NCBI GenBank assembly: GCA_951406725.2
Contig: OX597823.1
Location: 102,920,001-102,984,000, forward strand
Source of the DNA: Octopus vulgaris
Taxonomy: Eukaryota
Length of the DNA: 64,000 nt
Direction: 5' to 3'
Positions 5,134 through 64,000 of this stretch are shown here, piece by piece (position 1 is the first letter of the stretch; the number at the start of each line of letters is the position of its first letter). The position numbers and the translations under genes were made by a program. The notes below the pieces were generated by a model. The model did no database searches. It saw only the letters and a list, made by a program, of their open reading frames with translations, and was not told where the DNA came from.

Positions 5134-5501
5134 GTGAGTTGAAAACAAAGTTTTCTGTATCCCCAGCGTATTGACTATATATTTTCAGGAGTGGAGAAGA
5201 AATTGTACAAAAATTTATTGAACAGCCATCCATTTCTATCAGTATTTTTATCATTCAGGAAAGAGTTACAAGATATAAACATGAGAACCTGTGGGTTTCT
5301 ACTTTTTAACCATGGCTATGTATTATACTTATCTTCCCTGCCCACCCCTGCAACTTACTCAGTATCATTCCTCTCTTATCCTACTCATCCCTTTACTCTC
5401 TGGTTTCACTCAACCATTCCCACTCCCACTTCTAAAATGTGAGTAGATGAGCAAGAAACCTGTTCTGCTCTGGCCTTTTTGACTCTCATCTCTTAGCTTA
5501 A

Positions 5502-6818
5502 CCCTATCGTTACTATATTTCTGACCCCTTATGTGTTTCAATTCATTTCTAACATAATCATAAATTTAGTCTGGTTTCATTAAACAACTATAACTTTTTT
5601 ATTTATCAATATATTAATGTGATTTTTGGAAGATAATTTAATGAAATGTTCTCAACCAATTCTATACTATAATTTTTGTCACAAAGTGACTCTAATTGCA
5701 GGTAGATACAGGTAAATTCAACAAAATATAAAATTATTAAAATTTTTGTTCAAACATCGCTGTAGAAAATGGGTTATTAGCTAATATTCAATTGGGTATA
5801 CAACAAAATTTTACTATAGAATTTGTAACTTTCTGATACCCATAATAATATTTATGGCAAAATAGGCCTTAATTTCATTTAAGGTTGTGGGAAACCACAA
5901 ACTATCCCTTCTTTCGCTTTGTTTACATTTCGCGTAACGGTTCGTTTCCGCTGTAATTTTCTGATACCCATAATAATATTTATGGCAAAATAGGCCTTAA
6001 TTTCATTTAAGGTTGTGGGAAACCACAAACTATCCTTTCTTTCGCTTTCGCCGTAATTTTCTGATACCCATAATATTTATGGGTAACTTTCTGATACCCA
6101 TAATAATATTTATGGCAAAATAGGCCTTAATTTCATTTAAGGTTGTGGGAAATAACAAACTATCCTTTCTTTCGCTTTGTTTACATTTAGCGTAACGGTT
6201 CGTTTCCGCCGTAATGATTTCAAATAGGCTCATTCGAAAAAGTAAAAAGAAATAGTCTAAGACTTTACTCTCCTGGGAAAGACTGTGGCTTGGTCCAGTT
6301 TCTTCAGAAAAATCACTGAAAGAAACAGTTTTTAAATTTTCACTCCATTCAGGTGCCAATTTATTTTCTTTATCGCTGTCAGAGCTCTCGGATTCACTGC
6401 TTTTATTTTCAGAAAATGAAACATCGTATTCATTATCAAATACCATGTGCTTTTTTTTTTCAGTCATAGAGTTAGATTTATGAAGGTGTTCAGTAGAAAA
6501 GCCTTCGAATTCTGACTCGCTGCTTGATATAATGAAATTTGTATCCATTTTTTGTCAGAATTACAAATTTTGAAAACACAATAGGAACAAATTTCGGGAA
6601 AAAATCTCCCAAAATTCACGGAATTAAAATTACACTTCGATCGTTGTACAAAACTGTAGATGAACTGTTTACAAAGCATAATCACGTGTTTTCACGAATG
6701 TACTAAAGAGATTTGCTCTGATATTCTCATTTAAATATGAATAGGTAAATACGGGCAGCTTGGTCACATGAACCAAAATTTTTTTCGGGCGGCTTTGGGC
6801 AGTTTGGTAACGAAAGGG
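5502..6818 (-). mobile_element. piggyBac internal-deletion derivative, copy 1
   Basis: TTAA on both sides, TIRs CCCT(A/T)TCGTTAC. ORF 6030-6548 is an acidic N-terminus plus LDYFFLLF...IITAETNRYA...EIKAYFAINIIMGI, a piggyBac transposase N-terminal part with no DDD core. Confidence 0.92.
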
Positions 6819-7367: not shown

Positions 7368-7880
7368 GTATGAAATTTTTTTTTTTGCTATTAATATTTT
7401 TTAAGTTTTCAAAAATTCTCCTGCTTTAAATAGGAACTATATTTCCATTAGCCTGACATATGTAATCAACCATTGTTGATTGTAAACAACGTCTTCATAT
7501 TTCATCACAAATATTTACCATTTTCAACAGTTTGAGAGCAGCTGCTTCAAATCTTTGTCCCTTTTCATCTCTTCCATTCTCATGCTGACCACTTCAAGAG
7601 ACCCACCTTTCTCTTCCTGCTTGTTGCACTATCTGATGTCCAGAAAGGCTTTGTGTGTATGGCTAAAAATTTTTTCTTTTTAAGATTAATAGGCATTGGT
7701 TATAATTAAGGCAGAGTTCTGTGTCAAGGAAGTATAATCTTAATATAGTATGCTCATTTATGCAAATGTCTTTCTGATACTGTTTAGCTATTAATTCCGA
7801 TTTTTACATGATTTTGATGTTTTTTGCTACAAAGACTTATGTATCCCAATATGATTGATTTTATAACTTTAATTTTACAG

Positions 7881-8122
7881 GAGATTGAACCAACAGTTGG
7901 AGAAGCTCTATGTAAATTATTTCCGTCAGATGACAATGTTGATCTTGGCAGTATTGTAAGAAAGGCTAGAAAGTCACACCATCACTCTCGAAGTTCAGAA
8001 AGGCATTTGGATCGTTACCGTGGAGTAAGCAGTACTGGTGGGCCCAGTGGACCAGGTGTTGCAGGAACAGCTTCTACAGGAGCCAGTAGTAGCAGTGGCC
8101 CAAGGAATTCCGAAATTTCTAG
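7881..8122 (+). CDS. YTHDC1: YTHDC1 exon (end of YTH domain plus low-complexity linker)
   Basis: ttacag| ... |gttaga. EIEPTVGEALCKLFPSDDNVDLGSIVRKARKSHHH...PRNSEIS(R); the phase-2 end matches the exon at 23949. Confidence 0.9.
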
Positions 8123-11100
8123 GTTAGAGCACTTGTTTCAAGCTCAAGTTTTATATGGAAGAGGTATAACATGACCTCTCATTCCCAAGTACTTTGAGTA
8201 TTGTCTAATTTTTGAGGCGCGTATACACTCAATTATACAAATTCACACATACATGCAGACATATCTCAAAATATTCACCCTATGTTAGCAAATACGTACA
8301 CATAATACTTATAATTATGTGTACGTATGTATATCTATTTGGCATATGCATTCCTTCGAAGGTTCTTTGTTTTCCTGAGAAAATAAAAACCAAGAAAGGA
8401 ACAAGCTTGTACCAAGATAGATTGGAATATAAACTGGGTGGCGAAAAATGTTAATACCAACTCTTTCCGACTGGTAAGTATGTCAGAGTGGGCCGTATAT
8501 CTTTAATGATTCTCTTCCTAGCATATTACAGGGCTTAACTCCTGGAGCCTCTTACCACTGCATTTAGGAAGGCTTGACTTGCCTCATTTGAGCTCAATTT
8601 GGCCAGATTTAAAAGAAAAAGAGAGAAAAATAGAGGAAAAAAACAAACATAAGAAATGTTTATATCTGTGCAAGGACTTGCACACTATCTTGTAATACCA
8701 ATTCTGAAGTTGTTCTCAAAGGATTGTCTTATGGCTTCTAAAAAAGTGTTCTTACATATGCAATATTCTCTGGCATCCCATTGTTATTAAAGTCTTCTGG
8801 ACAGCAGTTATATTGATTCAGTTGGGTTGGGTTGTGTTATTGACAGCAAAATCAGTGAGTATTAATGTAATTTTCAGTGTTTGTAATCAATGTTATAAAC
8901 TATCATGCCATATTATCATAAAATGGTTTTCATTGGCTGTTTCCCTTCCCTCCAGCCTATTTACATGCTGATAGTAGACTACTTCACACCTACATCCTCA
9001 ATAATGTTGCCTACCATCAACTTACATCTGCATGGACGTAAGCATTTCATTGTACATTTTCTTATAAATGCAGTCATCTGTCTTTATTTCGACAAAAGTT
9101 TAAGTTGGTGAAAAGGCAGTTAAGTTTTGGTGCTGTCTCAAATGAAACAAAATAATTAAAAAGGAAAGTACAAAAACCCCACACATACACACATGCCCCT
9201 CCCCAAAAATCCAAAAGTAAGTTTTATGAACTGCGTATCTCTATATATAAATATATATTTATATAACCATCGGTGTTCAGCTCTAATTGAACTGTGATAC
9301 TACTATTGTTATGCGTGGGACTTCTCACAAAATGCCACATAATGAACTAAATATTGCATTAAAATAACGAACGTTAACATAAAAAAAAAATTAAAACGCA
9401 AACAAATAGTAGTGAGCAATGGAATACAGCTTGTATGTGGAGTTGGTACTGAGATGCTAGAAGACATTCAAACTGCAAAACGGTATGTTACCTCTTTTTC
9501 TTTTGCATAATTTAACCCACAGATCAACATATATGGTGCATCGTTGAGTTTTTGTTTATACAGTTATTTTTATTGCTTCGTTAAGCTGATTATAAAGTTA
9601 GGTCTTTCGTCCATCTCTTTATATATGCCAGTTTTATCAGTTGAAGTTCTGTATTTGAACTATTAACATTTATTGAACTCCATTAGAAACATTTTACATG
9701 GCATCATAATGATTAAGAATAGAATTTTAGGCTTCAAAAGTAACTCAGCATTTGTTACTTCATATGCTTAAATATCTATTTCCATATCAAGCAAATGTAT
9801 TTTAAACTTTATCAACTTGTCCCCTACATTTTGATATTTTTACTTCTTTAGAAGTAATTTAGCTTTTAGTTTATATATATATGTTTAGTTTGAAGCAATT
9901 TTTTTCTGAGATCTAAGTTTAAAGGGTGATGTAATGTACTTGTAACTATTTGAATTGTTTCTACTGAATTATTCTCCAGCTGAACATTCAAGATATTTAT
10001 GGAAATTTTTCTTCCTTTTAATAAATATTTTATTCCTTCAAATTATTTTTGGGTGACGTGAATGATAAATAATTAATACAGCTAGTACATACAAAACTGC
10101 ATGCAGTTTTTATGTAGAGGTGTGTTGTTTTTTTTTGTTTTTTGTTTTTTAATATTAGAAGTAACTATATGCTCTTGCTAATATTATACCTTCTATTTAA
10201 AGAAAATTTATTTATGTTGCATAAAGATATGAAGTATATGCAACAAAAAACACTCGTCATCTTTGTAGCTTTCCAACTTCTTAAATATTTATTAATATAT
10301 ATTTCTTTAAACTCTCATTTAATAGGAGTATCGATTAAAAAAAATCGTTTAAGTCTCAGCTATGAAAGCTTTTGAGTATATTAGAGATCATAACTTTGAA
10401 TTATTGCAACAAATGTTATTGACTTTTGTTTTCATAATTTATATCAAAAGGCTGAGTTGTTGTTGTTTTGAAATAGTTGCTGTTGAGAGCCAGTAATCTG
10501 CTGCAATGGTGGCACAGATTAATCAATACAGTTTCAAAGTAGTTCGCTCATGACTTGCTCTCTTGTACTGGGAATATCCTCACCATTGATTCTCTTTTGA
10601 TTTCATTGATCTTATTCAATTTCCTGCGCTTTTGGTTTATTTTTCATTTGCATTTGAGATTTGGGTCAAAATAGTAATTCTAGTATAATAAAAAAAATAA
10701 TAATAAATTTCTTGAAATCATTGCTGGAATTTAATATCTGATAAAATTTTATTTCACATGTTGAAATAAAACATTTTTTTCTTTTTTTTGAAATTTTATA
10801 TATGATTATATTGTTCAGGCCCTGTTCAATATAGATAGATAGATTTCTGATTTATGGCAATGTAGTATAATTAAACTATTTCAACTAAAGCTTTGCTATA
10901 TTTCATATTTTGATTTAGATGTGTTTATTTTTTCCTCTCGTCTTAAATGGTTTTAAACATCTAAATATTGATTATTCAATCAACCCTGCACTTCTGTTTG
11001 TCTGGTGCCTGGACAAAGGACCGAATTAATATTTGAAAAGTTTTGGGGGTTAAAATATTCAAATTTTATTTTAAATTTTCTTGCCACTGAATTCTGAATA

Positions 11101-15061: not shown

Positions 15062-16118
15062 CCCTTTCGTTACTATATTTCTGACCAAAATACACCCCTT
15101 ATGTGTTTCAATTAATTTCTAACGTAATCATAAATTTAGTCTGGTTTCATTAAACAACTATAACTTTTTTATTTATCAATATATTAACGTGAATTTAGGA
15201 AGATAATTTTATGAAATGTTCTCAACCAATTCTATACTATAATTTTTGTCACAAAGTGACTCTAATTGCAGGTAGATACAGGTAAATTCAACAAAATATA
15301 AAATTATTAAAATTTTGTTCAAACATCGCTATAGAAAATGGGTTATTAGCTAATATTCAATTGGGTATACAACAAAATTTTATGATAGAATTTGTTATTC
15401 TGGGTAACTTTCTGATACCATTAATAATATTTATGGCAAAATAGTCTTAATTTCATTTAAGGTTATGGGAAACCACTTTCTTTCGTTTTGTTTACATTTA
15501 GCGTAACGGTTCGTTTCCGCCGTAATGATTTCAAATAGGCTCATTCGAAAAAGTAAAAAGAAATAGTCTAAGGCTTTACTCTCCTCGGAAAGTCTCTGGC
15601 TTGGTCCAGTTTCTTCAGAAAAATCACCGAAAGAAACAGTTTTTAAATTTTCACTCCATTCAGGTGCCAATTCATTTTCTTTATCGCTGTCGGAGCTCTC
15701 GGATTCACTGTTTTCACTTTCGGAAAATGAAACATCAGATTCATTATCAAATACCACATGGTTTTTTTTCTCAGTCATAGAGTTAGATTTATGAAGGTGT
15801 TCAGTAGAAAAGCCTTCGAATTCTGACTCGCTGCTTGATATATTGAAATTCGTATCCATTTTTTGTCAGAATTACAAATTTTGAAAACACAATAGGAACA
15901 AATTTCGGAAAAAAATATCCCAAAATTCACGGAATTAAAATTACACTTCGATTTTTGTACAAAACTGTAGTTGAAGTCTTTACAAAGTATAATACTTGTT
16001 TTCACGAATGTACTAAAGAGATTTGCTCTGATATTCTCATTTAAATATGAATAGGTAAATACGGGCGGCTTGGTCACATTAACCAAAAATTTTTTCGGCC
16101 GGTTTGGTAATGAAAGGG
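15062..16118 (-). mobile_element. piggyBac internal-deletion derivative, copy 2
   Basis: TTAA TSD and the same TIRs; highly similar to 5502-6818; truncated transposase ORF 15431-15859. Confidence 0.92.
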
Positions 16119-45400: not shown

Positions 45401-45800
45401 CATAAACTAGGTTGGTTTCTAACAAATTATTAGATGAAATTTGACCTAATTTCAAGAGTATTAAAGTATAGTATTTACCCAAGTAATTTTCTAAGTAATG
45501 ATTGTTTATTATTATTATTATTATTATTAGTAGTAGTAGTAGTAGCAGTAGCATCATCATCATCATCATTATTATTATTAGGGCAGTGAGCTGGTAGACT
45601 CGTTACATGCCAGGCAAAATGCTAAGTGGCATTTTGTCTGCTTTTACGTTTCGAGTTCAAATTCTGCCAAGGTTGACTTTGCTTTTCATCCTTTCAGTGG
45701 GGTTGATAAAATAAGTACCAGTGAAACACTGGAGTCAATGTAATCGACTTGTTCTCTGTAACAAAAATTGCTGGTCTTGTGCCAAAATTGGAAAGAATTA

Positions 45801-45840
<40 letters not shown>

Positions 45841-45844
<4 letters not shown>

Positions 45845-46569
45845 AACTTATAAGTGAGGGCTAAAGAAAATTATTTCAAAGCCAATATGCTGATAACAGA
45901 CTATTAAATCGTCAATTTCCACATATTATTTACTCGCTACAGAAAAAAACACGAAGAACTGTAATCAGGCAAGCCGGCTGTTAGAATTTTTAAAAAAGTT
46001 TGTTATTTCTATATTGAATCAATTTTCTGTAGAAAAAAAACTTCATCCTATATTAGTAGTAGACTTATTACTACTCGCTATAGGGACTGGTAACCACTAT
46101 AACCTATAGTGGAGAAGTCAACACGTTGTGCTGAGGCTGACCAAAGAATTTTATTTTTAGATATATCTGGGGTACTTATATGTACTCATGATTTTTGCTT
46201 CGTTTTTTTCCTTGGGCGCATGTAAGTATCTTATTTATATTCTTTCGTATGTTCTACTGAAGAGGAAAGAATCTTTTATGAGATTAATTCTGAAATTGAT
46301 TCAATATAGAAATAACGAACTTTTAAAAAAAATTCTAACGGCCAGCTTGCCCGATTACAGTTCTTCATGTTTTTTTCTGTAGCGAGTAAATAATATGTGG
46401 AAATTGACAATTTAATAGTCTGTTATCAGCATATTGGCATTGAAATAATTTTCTTTAGCCCTCACTTATAAGTTGTTTATAATTTTAACCGTAAAGGTAT
46501 TTTAATATGCTGCCACATGTTTTGATGGAATTTTTTTCTGTAGAAAAAAAACTTCATCCTATATTAGTA

Positions 46570-46572
<3 letters not shown>
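45841..46572 (+). mobile_element. Penelope-like pLTR / retrozyme-like unit embedded in (TA)n
   Basis: 185-bp inverted repeat (45841-46025 vs 46293-46478), 39-bp direct repeat (46023-46061 vs 46534-46572), internal hammerhead motif, (TA)n on both sides. Confidence 0.7.
46244..46319 (+). ncRNA. Type I hammerhead ribozyme motif
   Basis: Stem I TTCGT-atg-TTCTA / TAGAA-ata-ACGAA; core CTGAAGA 46257-46263; stem II GGAA..AATCT / AGATT..TTCT; GAAA 46292-46295; stem III TTG-att-CAA; AUA cleavage triplet ending at 46306. Confidence 0.75.
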
Positions 46573-46616
<44 letters not shown>

Positions 46617-48044
46617 CTTTATGTTATTTTTTAAAAAAGATCTGAAGATTGGTAATTCAAACAGTAAGGAAAGAGAATGATGATATAAAGTGAAGTGACA
46701 TAGTCACAACAAAAAAGGACGTCTAGTTTACACTACTTAGTATTCAGCTAAACAAAATGATAATTCATTTCCCCATTTTTAAATTAGTCTTTTAATATGT
46801 ATGTATGCATGCATGTATGACCAATACTAATGGGAGGAAAGATAAGTGAAAGTATATTTTATCAACAAAATAACCAAATAATAATAATGATCATCATGAT
46901 GCTTTAAAATTTTGGCATAAGGCAGAAATTTTAGGGAAGCGGGTTAGAAGTCAATTCCATTGACAGCTATGTTCAAATGGTGCTCACTTTATCAACCCCA
47001 AAAAGATGAAAGGTGAAGTTGAACTCAGAATGTAAAGAGCTGGAAGAGCCACCAAACATTTTTGGCTGACATGCTAACGAATCTGTCAGCTTTGCTACCG
47101 AATAATAATAATCTTTCTATGATAGGCACAAGGCCTGCAATTTGGAGAGAGGAGGCTAGCTGATTACATCGATCTCAGCACCCCGCTGGTACTATTTTAT
47201 CAATCCTAAAAGAATGAAAGGCAAAGTTGACTTTGGTGGTATGGGGAATGGGTTAGTTGATAACACGTCAAAGAATTCAGTATTAGAGATTCATTTCAGC
47301 CAATGTTACTAATTGGTTTCACACTGGATATTAACAGCATGGTTAAGTAACACCACATGCTCTTCAGAGATGGCAAGTAAGGAAAAAAATAAGTGCACAC
47401 CCACACACACAGCATAGAATGGCAGCAAGCTCTTGCTAATTCAAACCCTTTTGGTATTGTTTCTTCTCACTTAGTCCAATAAGTTCAGCCATGGACAAGA
47501 ACATTCTAAGAGACAGCTCAAATATATAAACATAACTACATGATATATAAGATATTTAAGCAATCTTTCCCTAACAGCAGGACTTATTAAGATATTGATT
47601 TCAAATTTTGGTACAAGCCCAGCAATTTCAGGGGTTAAGTCAATTACATTGACTCTAGTGTTCAGCTGGTACTTATTTTATCGAACCGAAAAGAATGAAA
47701 GGCAAAGTAAAACCATGTGGCATTTTGAGGACTTAAGATATTACTCATAATAAATCAGGTCACATTACTAAAAGATTGATTTAATAAAAGCTTACATCAC
47801 TTAAGGAACACGAAGTATTATTACACTTTCAGTAAAATCGCAAAAATTTGATAGAGAAAATGTATGTGAATGAGAGGTGGGATGCAGGAGAAAGAAACAA
47901 AATTGTTCCAATTAAGAGTCAGACTTAAAGAGTATTACAAACTATTAGAATTTAATGTAATGTATACCATTAAAAAAGCAAAAACAAAATCAAGATTACA
48001 AGAATATTCTAAGTGCTACATATCACACATAACTGATATATATA

Positions 48045-48270
48045 TTTCTTTACTACCCACAAGGGGCTAAACACAGAGGGGACAAACAAGGACAGGCAAA
48101 GGGATTAAGTCGATTATATTGACCCCAGTGCGAAACTGGTACTTTATTTACCGACCTCGAAAGGATGAAAGGCAAAGTCGACCTCGGCAGAATTTGAACT
48201 CAGAACGTAACGACAGACGAAATACCGCTAAGCATTTCGCCCAGCGCGCTATTGTTTCTGCCAGTTCACC
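48045..48270 (-). mobile_element. tRNA-derived SINE, same family, reverse orientation
   Basis: Reverse complement closely matches 20415-20640. Decayed reverse copies at about 37880-38080, 46900-47240 and 47590-47720. Confidence 0.85.
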
Positions 48271-62004: not shown

Positions 62005-64000
62005 TGTAGACAGGGCCATTAAAGCAAAGAAACAGACCTGGAAGAGTAGGGGCAACAGGGAAGGGAAGCTAGGAGACAGGTATACCTAGCCAAAGGAGAA
62101 GTAGAGAAGAAGAAGTCTGCCAATGTTCAGTGTCATGAGGACAAAAAAACTGAATTATTTCAGCTTGCAAGACAGTGCGTGAGAGAAAACTGTGATGTCA
62201 TAGGAGAGAAATGTGCTTGTATGGATGATGGTGCACCTGCTTTTACTGAATCTGCAAAGAAAGGGGCTTAGAGATACCATTATGAAAGACCGCTGAATGT
62301 GGAGAATGAATGGGAGGAGGAGAGCCTGCCGAATCCTGGTAGATAAAGCAATTAAGGATATGAAGACAGGGAAAGCTTCCGGCCCATCAGGAATCACTGC
62401 TGAGAGGCTTAAAATATCTGGCAGTTTGGGTTATGGTCAAGTCACCTGTATTGTAAATCAGGTGGTTCATGAAGGAGTCTGGTGTAGTAGCACCATAGTC
62501 AACTGCTACAAAGATAAAGATGATGCCTTAGACAGAAATAATTACAGAAGTGTCGAATTGTTCGATCAGGTGATGAAAGTTGCAGAGAGAATGCAGTTTG
62601 GTTTTGTGTCAGGTAGAAGCACCATTGATGCTATATTTCTGGTAAGGCAACTGCAGGAGAAATACCTAGCTAAGGATAAACCTCTGTACTTGGCTTTTGT
62701 TGACTTGGAGAAAGCTTTTGACAGAGACCCCACTGATACCTTATCTGGTGCTCAATGTGGAAACTAAGGATAGACGAGAGGTTGGTGAGAGCTTCATACA
62801 GGGATGCTACCTGTAAGGTGAAAGTGGGCAATGAGTACAGTGAAGAATTCAGGGTACAAATAGGGGTTCACCAAGGATCGGTGCTTAGCCCCCTTTTGTT
62901 CATCATAGTCCTCCAGGCAATAACAGAAGAATTCAAAACAGGTTGCTCCTGGGAGCTCCTCTATGCTGATGAGCTTGTTCTTATAGCTGAATCCCTACCA
63001 GAACTACAGAAGAAGATCCAGGTATGGAAGCAAGCTCTAGAATTAAAGGGCCTTAGAGTTAACCAAGCAAAAACCAAAGTCATAGTAAGTAAGAAGGCAG
63101 ACAAATCACATATCCCTTCAGGTAGACGGTCCTGTTCAATCTGTAGAAAGGGTGTAGGTAGAAACTCCATAAGATGCAGCCAACCTAATCTTTGGATGCA
63201 TAAAAGGTGTAGCAACATCAGAGGAAGGTTGACAGGGAGACTAACTTTTATATGTGGAAGGTGCACAGGGGCAATAAACACTGAAAATGTGCAGAAAATA
63301 GACTCCATCAACTAAAGGTAGTAGGTAGTTTCTGTTATCTAGGCGACCAAGTTAGTAGTGGAGGTGGATGCTCTAAGAGTGTAGCTGTGAGAATAATTCA
63401 GAGAGCTCCTACCCCTGCTGGCAACAAAGGGCCTCTCTCTCAGAATGAAAGGCAGATTGTTTGATGCCTGTGTGCGAACAGCCATGCAGCATGACAGTGA
63501 AACATGGGCTATGACAGCCAAGGACATGCGTAGGCTTGAGAGAAATGAAGCCAGTATGCTTTGCTGGATGTGCAATGTCAGTGTGCATGTTTGACAAAGT
63601 GCAAGCATCTTGAGAGAAAAGTTAGGCATAAGAGGAATCAGATGTGGTATGCAAGAGAGACGACTGCACTGGTATGGTCATATGATGCGTATGGACGAGG
63701 ACAGCTGTGTAAAGAAGTACTGATCTCTAACTGTGGAAGGAACCTGTGGTAGAGGTAGACCCGGGAAAACATGGGACAAGGTGGTGAAGCATGATCTTTG
63801 AACTTTAAGCCTTAAAGAGGCAATGACTGGTGACTGAGATCTTTGGCAATGTGCTGTGCTTGAGAGGACTTGTCAAGCCAAGAGCATCAATGCTGGTGGC
63901 ACATAAAGAACATCTTTTGAATGTTGGGCCTCCTGGAGGCAAAGTGACTGAGTTCCTTTCAAGCATTGAGCTTCATAGAGGCAAAGTGGCTAAGTTCCTT
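62005..64000 (+). mobile_element. 5'-truncated, inactivated RTE-clade LINE (reverse transcriptase pseudogene) in a TSC2 intron
   Basis: MKTGKASGPSGI, QFGFVSGRSTIDAIF, YLAFVDLEKAFDR, GVHQGSVLSPLLF, LLYADEL (mutated YADD) and RRLHWYGH. Frameshifts and stops present. Confidence 0.93.

Follow-up and report, generated by a model that had tools for sequence, protein, structure and literature searches.

Introduction

Penelope-like elements that carry an endonuclease leave a recognisable footprint on insertion, which consists of an adjacent, inverted and 5′-truncated copy, a tail on one side only, usually of 30–40 bp, and a bias towards (TA)n targets (Arkhipova 2013, PMC3846280; Craig 2021, PMC8557442). 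In vitro, the protein of a lizard Penelope element cuts and extends both strands of AT-rich DNA, begins synthesis at two internal sites whose distance equals the tail, and uses mainly uncut RNA as its template (Frangieh 2024, PMC11167929). Animal non-LTR retrozymes have been proposed to be non-autonomous elements that derive from Penelope and are moved by it (Cervera and de la Pena 2020, PMC7229834; Li, Clavereau and Pollet 2026, 10.64898/2026.07.22.740005), and the later text describes them as homologous to pLTRs; the case for this mobilisation rests on co-occurrence and sequence similarity.

Here we describe a hammerhead-bearing repeat in a 64-kb stretch of Octopus DNA (hereafter the window). 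Its layout is that of the already described Penelope insertion unit, and the concept is not new; the octopus family works like Penelope insertion units and retrozymes and adds a cephalopod family to them. We hold with middling confidence that the window element is a non-autonomous Penelope-type unit, inserted at nearly full length and copied from a linear tandem transcript. Its insertion into a TA microsatellite by a Penelope-like reverse transcriptase-endonuclease acting in trans is likely. No account of a hammerhead repeat in octopus came up in the literature searched, the scope of which excluded most subscription journals as well as Repbase and Dfam; these two databases may already contain the family.

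Results and Discussion

Organisation of the Window Element

A sequence-only reading of the window had proposed a self-cleaving, non-coding mobile RNA family at this locus, and when the sequence was re-checked all of the features that it named were found where it had placed them. The hammerhead landmarks agree in every position (CTGAAGA at 46257-63, GAAA at 46292-95 and an AUA site with the cut expected after 46306), the recurrence of the first 39 bp of the unit 511 bp later is exact (46023-46061 and 46534-46572), and (TA)n runs flank the element at both ends (Table 1). The inverted copy, given as about 185 bp long and ending in the ribozyme core, indeed breaks off within the GAAA; aligned in full (45838-46025 against 46293-46481) it is 94.7% identical over 189 columns, the shorter figure being what remains after subtraction of the bases common to the TA run. 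It is a 3′ end of the element that meets the target at either junction, and a target-site duplication is unreadable inside (TA)n. No second copy of the unit was found within the 64-kb window.

Table 1. Features of the octopus element, in window coordinates
Feature	Position	Strand	Remarks
Left (TA)n run	45806..45841	.	Likely half of the target microsatellite
Inverted 5′-truncated arm	45838..46025	-	Reverse complement of 46293-46481; 3′ end adjoins the left TA run
Forward arm	46023..46572	+	A full 511-bp period followed by 39 bp; non-coding, strongly self-paired, GC content 30%
39-bp redundancy, first copy	46023..46061	+	Exact repeat; 3-T overlap with the inverted arm
Type I hammerhead motif	46244..46319	+	Predicted cut after 46306; stem II closing pair G-U in the window copy
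Near-palindromic stem III	46295..46305 (11 nt)	+	Predicted dimerisation site
3′-terminal block	46384..46481	+	Common to many more copies than the rest of the unit; 46481 is a recurrent family end, followed by (TA)n
91-nt extension (tail-like)	46482..46572	+	Forward arm only; ends with the second 39-bp copy (46534-46572)
Right (TA)n run	46571..46612	.	

As in a Penelope-type insertion, the inverted 5′-truncated copy is adjacent to the element at its 5′ end and the target is an AT-rich microsatellite. Further features shared with the endonuclease-bearing Penelope insertions are the staggered outer ends, a hammerhead in the terminal module, the (TA)n target itself and a template longer than one unit (Arkhipova 2013, PMC3846280; Craig 2021, PMC8557442; Frangieh 2024, PMC11167929). 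The octopus locus differs from the insertions described in those reports in that it has no reverse transcriptase or GIY-YIG ORF, its period is only 511 bp, and its two outer ends (46481 and 46572) lie 91 nt apart, so that the one-sided extension exceeds the 30–40 bp of the Penelope tail. Equating the 39-bp repeat with such a tail was considered and set aside, the repeat being redundancy only and the ends differing by 91 nt; the redundancy probably marks where the forward cDNA stopped.

Translation of the unit in six frames revealed no coding remnant (the longest plus-strand frame has 73 aa) and no Pfam match. The unit is non-coding, has a GC content under 50% and carries a type I hammerhead, as expected of a non-LTR retrozyme. 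Every insertion feature is, at the same time, that of autonomous elements (PMC8557442, PMC3846280), and the 511-bp period could instead be the terminal module (pLTR) that an autonomous Penelope-like element carries in repeated form, or its truncated ends in partial tandem, with the locus an ordinary 5′-truncated insertion that has an inverted pLTR. We regard this as rather unlikely, and the forward arm, which starts with its own ending sequence and has no coding remnant, argues against it.

The Unit Belongs to a Multi-Copy Family

The unit was found in 20 of 24 listed runs (8 studies, two organisms), and four of them (X1, X3, X4 and X17), all in the form of public contigs, were compared with it at 85% likeness. 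Records that fell on the unit numbered 1,179 out of 23.6 million in the DNA run X17 and 1,684 out of 35.8 million in the DNA run X4, most of them 90-99% alike, and two small runs gave 79 and 40 such records. One DNA run is possibly the source of the window itself, and we therefore relied on contigs that differ from the window.

Head-to-tail joints with a period of about 507-511 bp are present in five contigs from three runs, among the 15 joints listed of 18. Those leading from 46541 to 46034/46035 occur in two contigs of X1 and one of X3, with 50, 38 and 38 letters on the shorter side, and where readable they pass the 39-bp redundancy by 11-22 or more letters; the other two come from the DNA run X4. 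Divergent contigs also overlap along the entire unit, its lowest-depth part included, which implies that some copies, at the least, leave no space for an ORF and, together with the joints, that the period of about 511 bp is a property of the family and is present in its DNA. A chance join at 46061/46062 that is specific to this locus was rejected, since the joint is present in divergent contigs. Within the four runs no contig spanned the whole unit or two hammerhead motifs, and the tandem arrangement is seen there as head-to-tail joints only. In 13 contigs of X4, among the loose ends listed, a TA run follows directly after 46481, which of the two outer ends is the one seen to recur. The contigs thus bear out the earlier proposal of a non-coding, hammerhead-bearing mobile family, which is multi-copy, has a period of about 511 bp and ends in (TA)n.

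Coverage of the unit is far from even in the two DNA runs. Relative to 46061-46136, summed contig depth, which is no copy number, reaches 21-24 times in the 3′ half of the hammerhead, where it peaks within the unit, and 17-18 times at 46384-46478, suggesting that most of the related DNA is not the 511-bp unit; such an excess would be expected from sister families, from truncated copies or from a parent element. That the 3′ blocks so outnumber the 5′ part is a point for the period being the pLTR of an autonomous element, and so are the four contigs in which 198-381 unlike letters precede the matching part, as well as the reported expansion of Penelope families in octopus (PMC8967140). These contigs have low depth (10.6-80.8), however, as the flanks of single insertions would, and divergent contigs cover the entire period and its joint, both of which speak against that reading. 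No autonomous partner was found, the listed loose ends of the contigs being readable over 30 letters only.

The animal non-LTR retrozymes (PMC7229834; 10.64898/2026.07.22.740005) are repeats that, like the octopus unit, are non-coding, low in GC and self-paired, carry a type I hammerhead and form head-to-tail joints; a term search of both texts found no mention of cephalopods or inverted arms. In length, the octopus unit surpasses the repeats of the former study (150-450 bp) and falls within the range of the latter (51-972 bp). In contrast to the retrozymes, the window locus comprises 1.08 units and not an array. The Chlamys elements that are non-autonomous, MRC1 among them (Craig 2021, PMC8557442), are likewise short Penelope derivatives with pLTRs and head-to-tail insertions, but most Chlamys lack canonical hammerheads, and their hosts are green algae and their preferred targets (CA)n or (C)n.

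X1 and X3 cover the unit evenly, with a 3′ to 5′ depth ratio of 1.2-1.3 compared with 17-18 in the DNA runs, and the letters at 46119, 46120, 46242, 46337, 46339 and 46349 that make up 2-5% in the DNA runs account for 31-87% in X1 and X3. This pattern would fit transcripts of a few source loci, the RNA nature of these runs being a guess. Contigs identical to the window copy within 46044-46284 extend over 140 nt in X1 and 241 nt in X3, without a single difference, and come from two organisms. A viral scan for the unit gave no matches, and two metagenome matches were dismissed as chance; both lie inside one bacterial reading frame, in two contigs that are 98% identical to each other.

The Hammerhead Motif

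In the window copy, the core elements CUGANGA, GAAA and NUH are linked through stems I, II and III as in a type I hammerhead. Stem I is formed by pairing of 46252-56 with 46307-11 and of 46244-48 with 46315-19, and stem II by pairing of 46264-67 with 46288-91 and of 46270-75 with 46280-85, each in two parts. A search with hammerhead models had been suggested as a check, and its outcome was divided: a motif descriptor of the type I topology gave one match in the 64 kb on both strands, against an expectation of 0.01 (loose) or 0.005 (strict) per shuffled window in 200 block-wise dinucleotide shuffles, whereas the Rfam hammerhead models gave no match at gathering score and none among the 10 matches up to E=10.

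The position numbers 10.1 and 11.1 used for the window motif follow the hammerhead convention. The closing pair of stem II is G-U here, and not G-C, owing to a T at 46291. C occupies this position in 98-99% of the summed depth of both DNA runs, and the family therefore has the canonical G10.1-C11.1 pair. The T at 46291 (TG from CG) fits CpG decay; judged from its letters, the window copy of the hammerhead looks decayed, and as a lone copy it is probably inert. The hammerheads of Penelope-type elements (Cervera and de la Pena 2014, PMC4209133), in which the G10.1-C11.1 pair is highly conserved, share with the octopus family this pair, the type I topology, a palindromic helix III and a predicted dependence on dimers. 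The octopus motif departs from those described there in its helix III, which is not minimal and has 4 pairs and a 3-nt loop, in its two-part stems I and II with internal loops, and in having no extra base between positions 9 and 10.1.

The loose ends listed, which are readable over 30 letters only, include sister motifs that have CTGAAGA intact and their stems changed. In one of them, read by eye, C-G replaces T46274-A46281 (11 contigs, agreement 0.75), and one loose end of run X17 among those listed has a broken core, CTGAACA. Variants fell into the 12 core positions in 0 of the 40 listed of 123 (P=0.40) and into core plus stems in 2 of these 40 (P=0.18), and neither figure is significant.

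Core conservation that does not reach significance, a lack of hammerhead matches in Rfam, and a ribozyme region that by itself folds no better than shuffles in two of three windows would all be seen if the repeat were an AT-rich dispersed one, propagated as DNA and unrelated to Penelope, in which the hammerhead is present by chance or as a vestige. We consider this very improbable. The number of such motifs expected per window is a hundredth or less, the family has the canonical closing pair, and sister motifs keep the core. Moreover, the depth of the unit is highest at the 3′ half of the motif, and the staggered 3′ ends in TA together with the variable inverted junctions fit retrotransposition.

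Predicted Folding and the Template

We then considered the predicted folding of the transcript. For the monomer, the predicted probabilities of formation are 0.6-0.95 for stems I and II but only 0.01-0.03 for stem III, because 46258-61 is predicted to pair with 46300-03 instead, and the active fold lies at -11.6 kcal/mol compared with -15.7 kcal/mol. In the dimer, a double-hammerhead fold has -33.5 kcal/mol, whereas two monomers together come to -31.4 and the most stable dimer fold to -34.8, and the near-palindrome at 46295-46305 is predicted to form a self-duplex of -6.7 kcal/mol; all of these energies are without tertiary contacts. The ribozyme is thus predicted to be dimer-dependent, being off as a monomer and foldable as a dimer. 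The unit as a whole (46062-46572) has a fold z of -4.5, compared with -1.2 to +1.7 in eight flanking controls; its minus strand has a z of -4.0, and the self-pairing is not strand-specific.

With an energy 1.3 kcal/mol short of the dimer minimum yet lower than that of two monomers, the double-hammerhead fold is in line with a true non-LTR retrozyme, in this case an octopus retrozyme of 510 nt whose tandem transcripts, from a few source loci, would be cleaved only as dimers after 46306 and circularised into 511-nt circles, which a Penelope reverse transcriptase would then copy beyond a single round, starting at each end of the cut TA target. Both arms cross the cut site and the forward arm is longer than one unit, as this would require; in addition, strong self-pairing is a property of retrozyme circles (PMC7229834), and a model with a circle as the template has been published (PMC4209133). 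Even so, we think this course of events unlikely. In vitro, insertion of the lizard element was unchanged by hammerhead mutants (PMC11167929), and 8 of 9 predicted Xenopus retrozyme dimers gave no cleavage (10.64898/2026.07.22.740005). None of 10 inverted-junction breakpoints is at the cut site, the minus strand folds about equally well, and invertebrate circles, at 170-400 nt, are shorter than the 511 nt of this unit (PMC7229834). Finally, the DNA contains head-to-tail joints and no circle is needed. If a circle were the template after all, the locus would provide direct footprint evidence for the proposed Penelope mobilisation of animal retrozymes and the first cephalopod case in the literature searched.

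Of the circular or multimeric template that the sequence-only reading had envisaged, a template longer than one unit stands and the circle proves unnecessary, since with head-to-tail joints present in a DNA run a linear tandem transcript suffices.

Proposed Insertion Mechanism and Decay of the Arms

On the preferred reading, in which a linear tandem transcript was copied, a head-to-tail source locus would give rise to a linear transcript longer than one unit. After cleavage of both (TA)n strands by a Penelope protein, either end would serve that protein to prime cDNA, with synthesis starting at the two internal sites 46481 and 46572 and yielding cDNAs of 189 nt and 550 nt, both of which would run through the uncut ribozyme site. 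The two cDNAs would then join head to head across the 3-base overlap, and the arms would decay independently thereafter, mostly at CpG. Being of retrozyme size, with a Penelope footprint and two predicted starts (46481 and 46572), the unit lends itself directly to the in vitro assay that has been published (PMC11167929).

The two arms differ from each other by 9 substitutions and 1 gap. Six of the nine are CpG-type transitions, with three CpGs lost per arm, and at 46344, 46367 and 46409 the letter of the family is that of the inverted arm. These CpG-type differences, taken together with the family letters, fit a single template followed by later decay. The identity of the 39-bp repeats is compatible with the age of the arms (P=0.12).

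Inverted junctions also vary in position. Four of the 10 breakpoints (2 from the window and 8 from contigs, a small sample) fall within the hammerhead and three at the start of a repeated T-rich motif, and the places involved include 46023, 46266-46298 and 46373. Opposite-strand junctions with other breakpoints make up 4 of the 15 joints listed (18 in total). Self-priming has been put forward as an alternative origin of inverted junctions (Arkhipova 2013, PMC3846280).

The hammerhead is bracketed by a splice-donor-like 6-mer (46222) and a T-rich, acceptor-like 13-mer (46370-46382 and 46531-46543), the latter present at two places in the unit and otherwise absent from the plus strand. Penelope elements with 5′ introns have been described (PMC8557442); no spliced form with a GT..AG joint was seen among 15 of the 18 joints.

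Genomic Neighbourhood

Exons of YTHDC1 lie on the plus strand from 815 to about 32126 and end some 14 kb before the element. For the exon at 7878-8123, identity to YTHDC1 amounts to 100% in Octopus, 95% in Argonauta and 78% in a cuttlefish, and the ESM Atlas gave no usable match for it. Between 33 and 62 kb, none of 43 candidate exonic frames had a Pfam match that would indicate a neighbouring gene. Two similar, decayed copies of a DNA transposon, at about 5500-6700 and 15100-16000 (-), are situated inside YTHDC1 introns; the copy at about 5500-6700 matches DDE_Tnp_1_7, and we take both to be piggyBac elements. Broken reverse-transcriptase frames at 62297-63677 belong to a LINE-like element with a PHD-like finger, which is 16 kb off and for which no link to the hammerhead unit was seen. 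Around the element, at 45570-45800 and 46900-48240, a short interspersed repeat, presumably a SINE, is present in several copies on both strands, and the left TA run adjoins the end of one of these copies.
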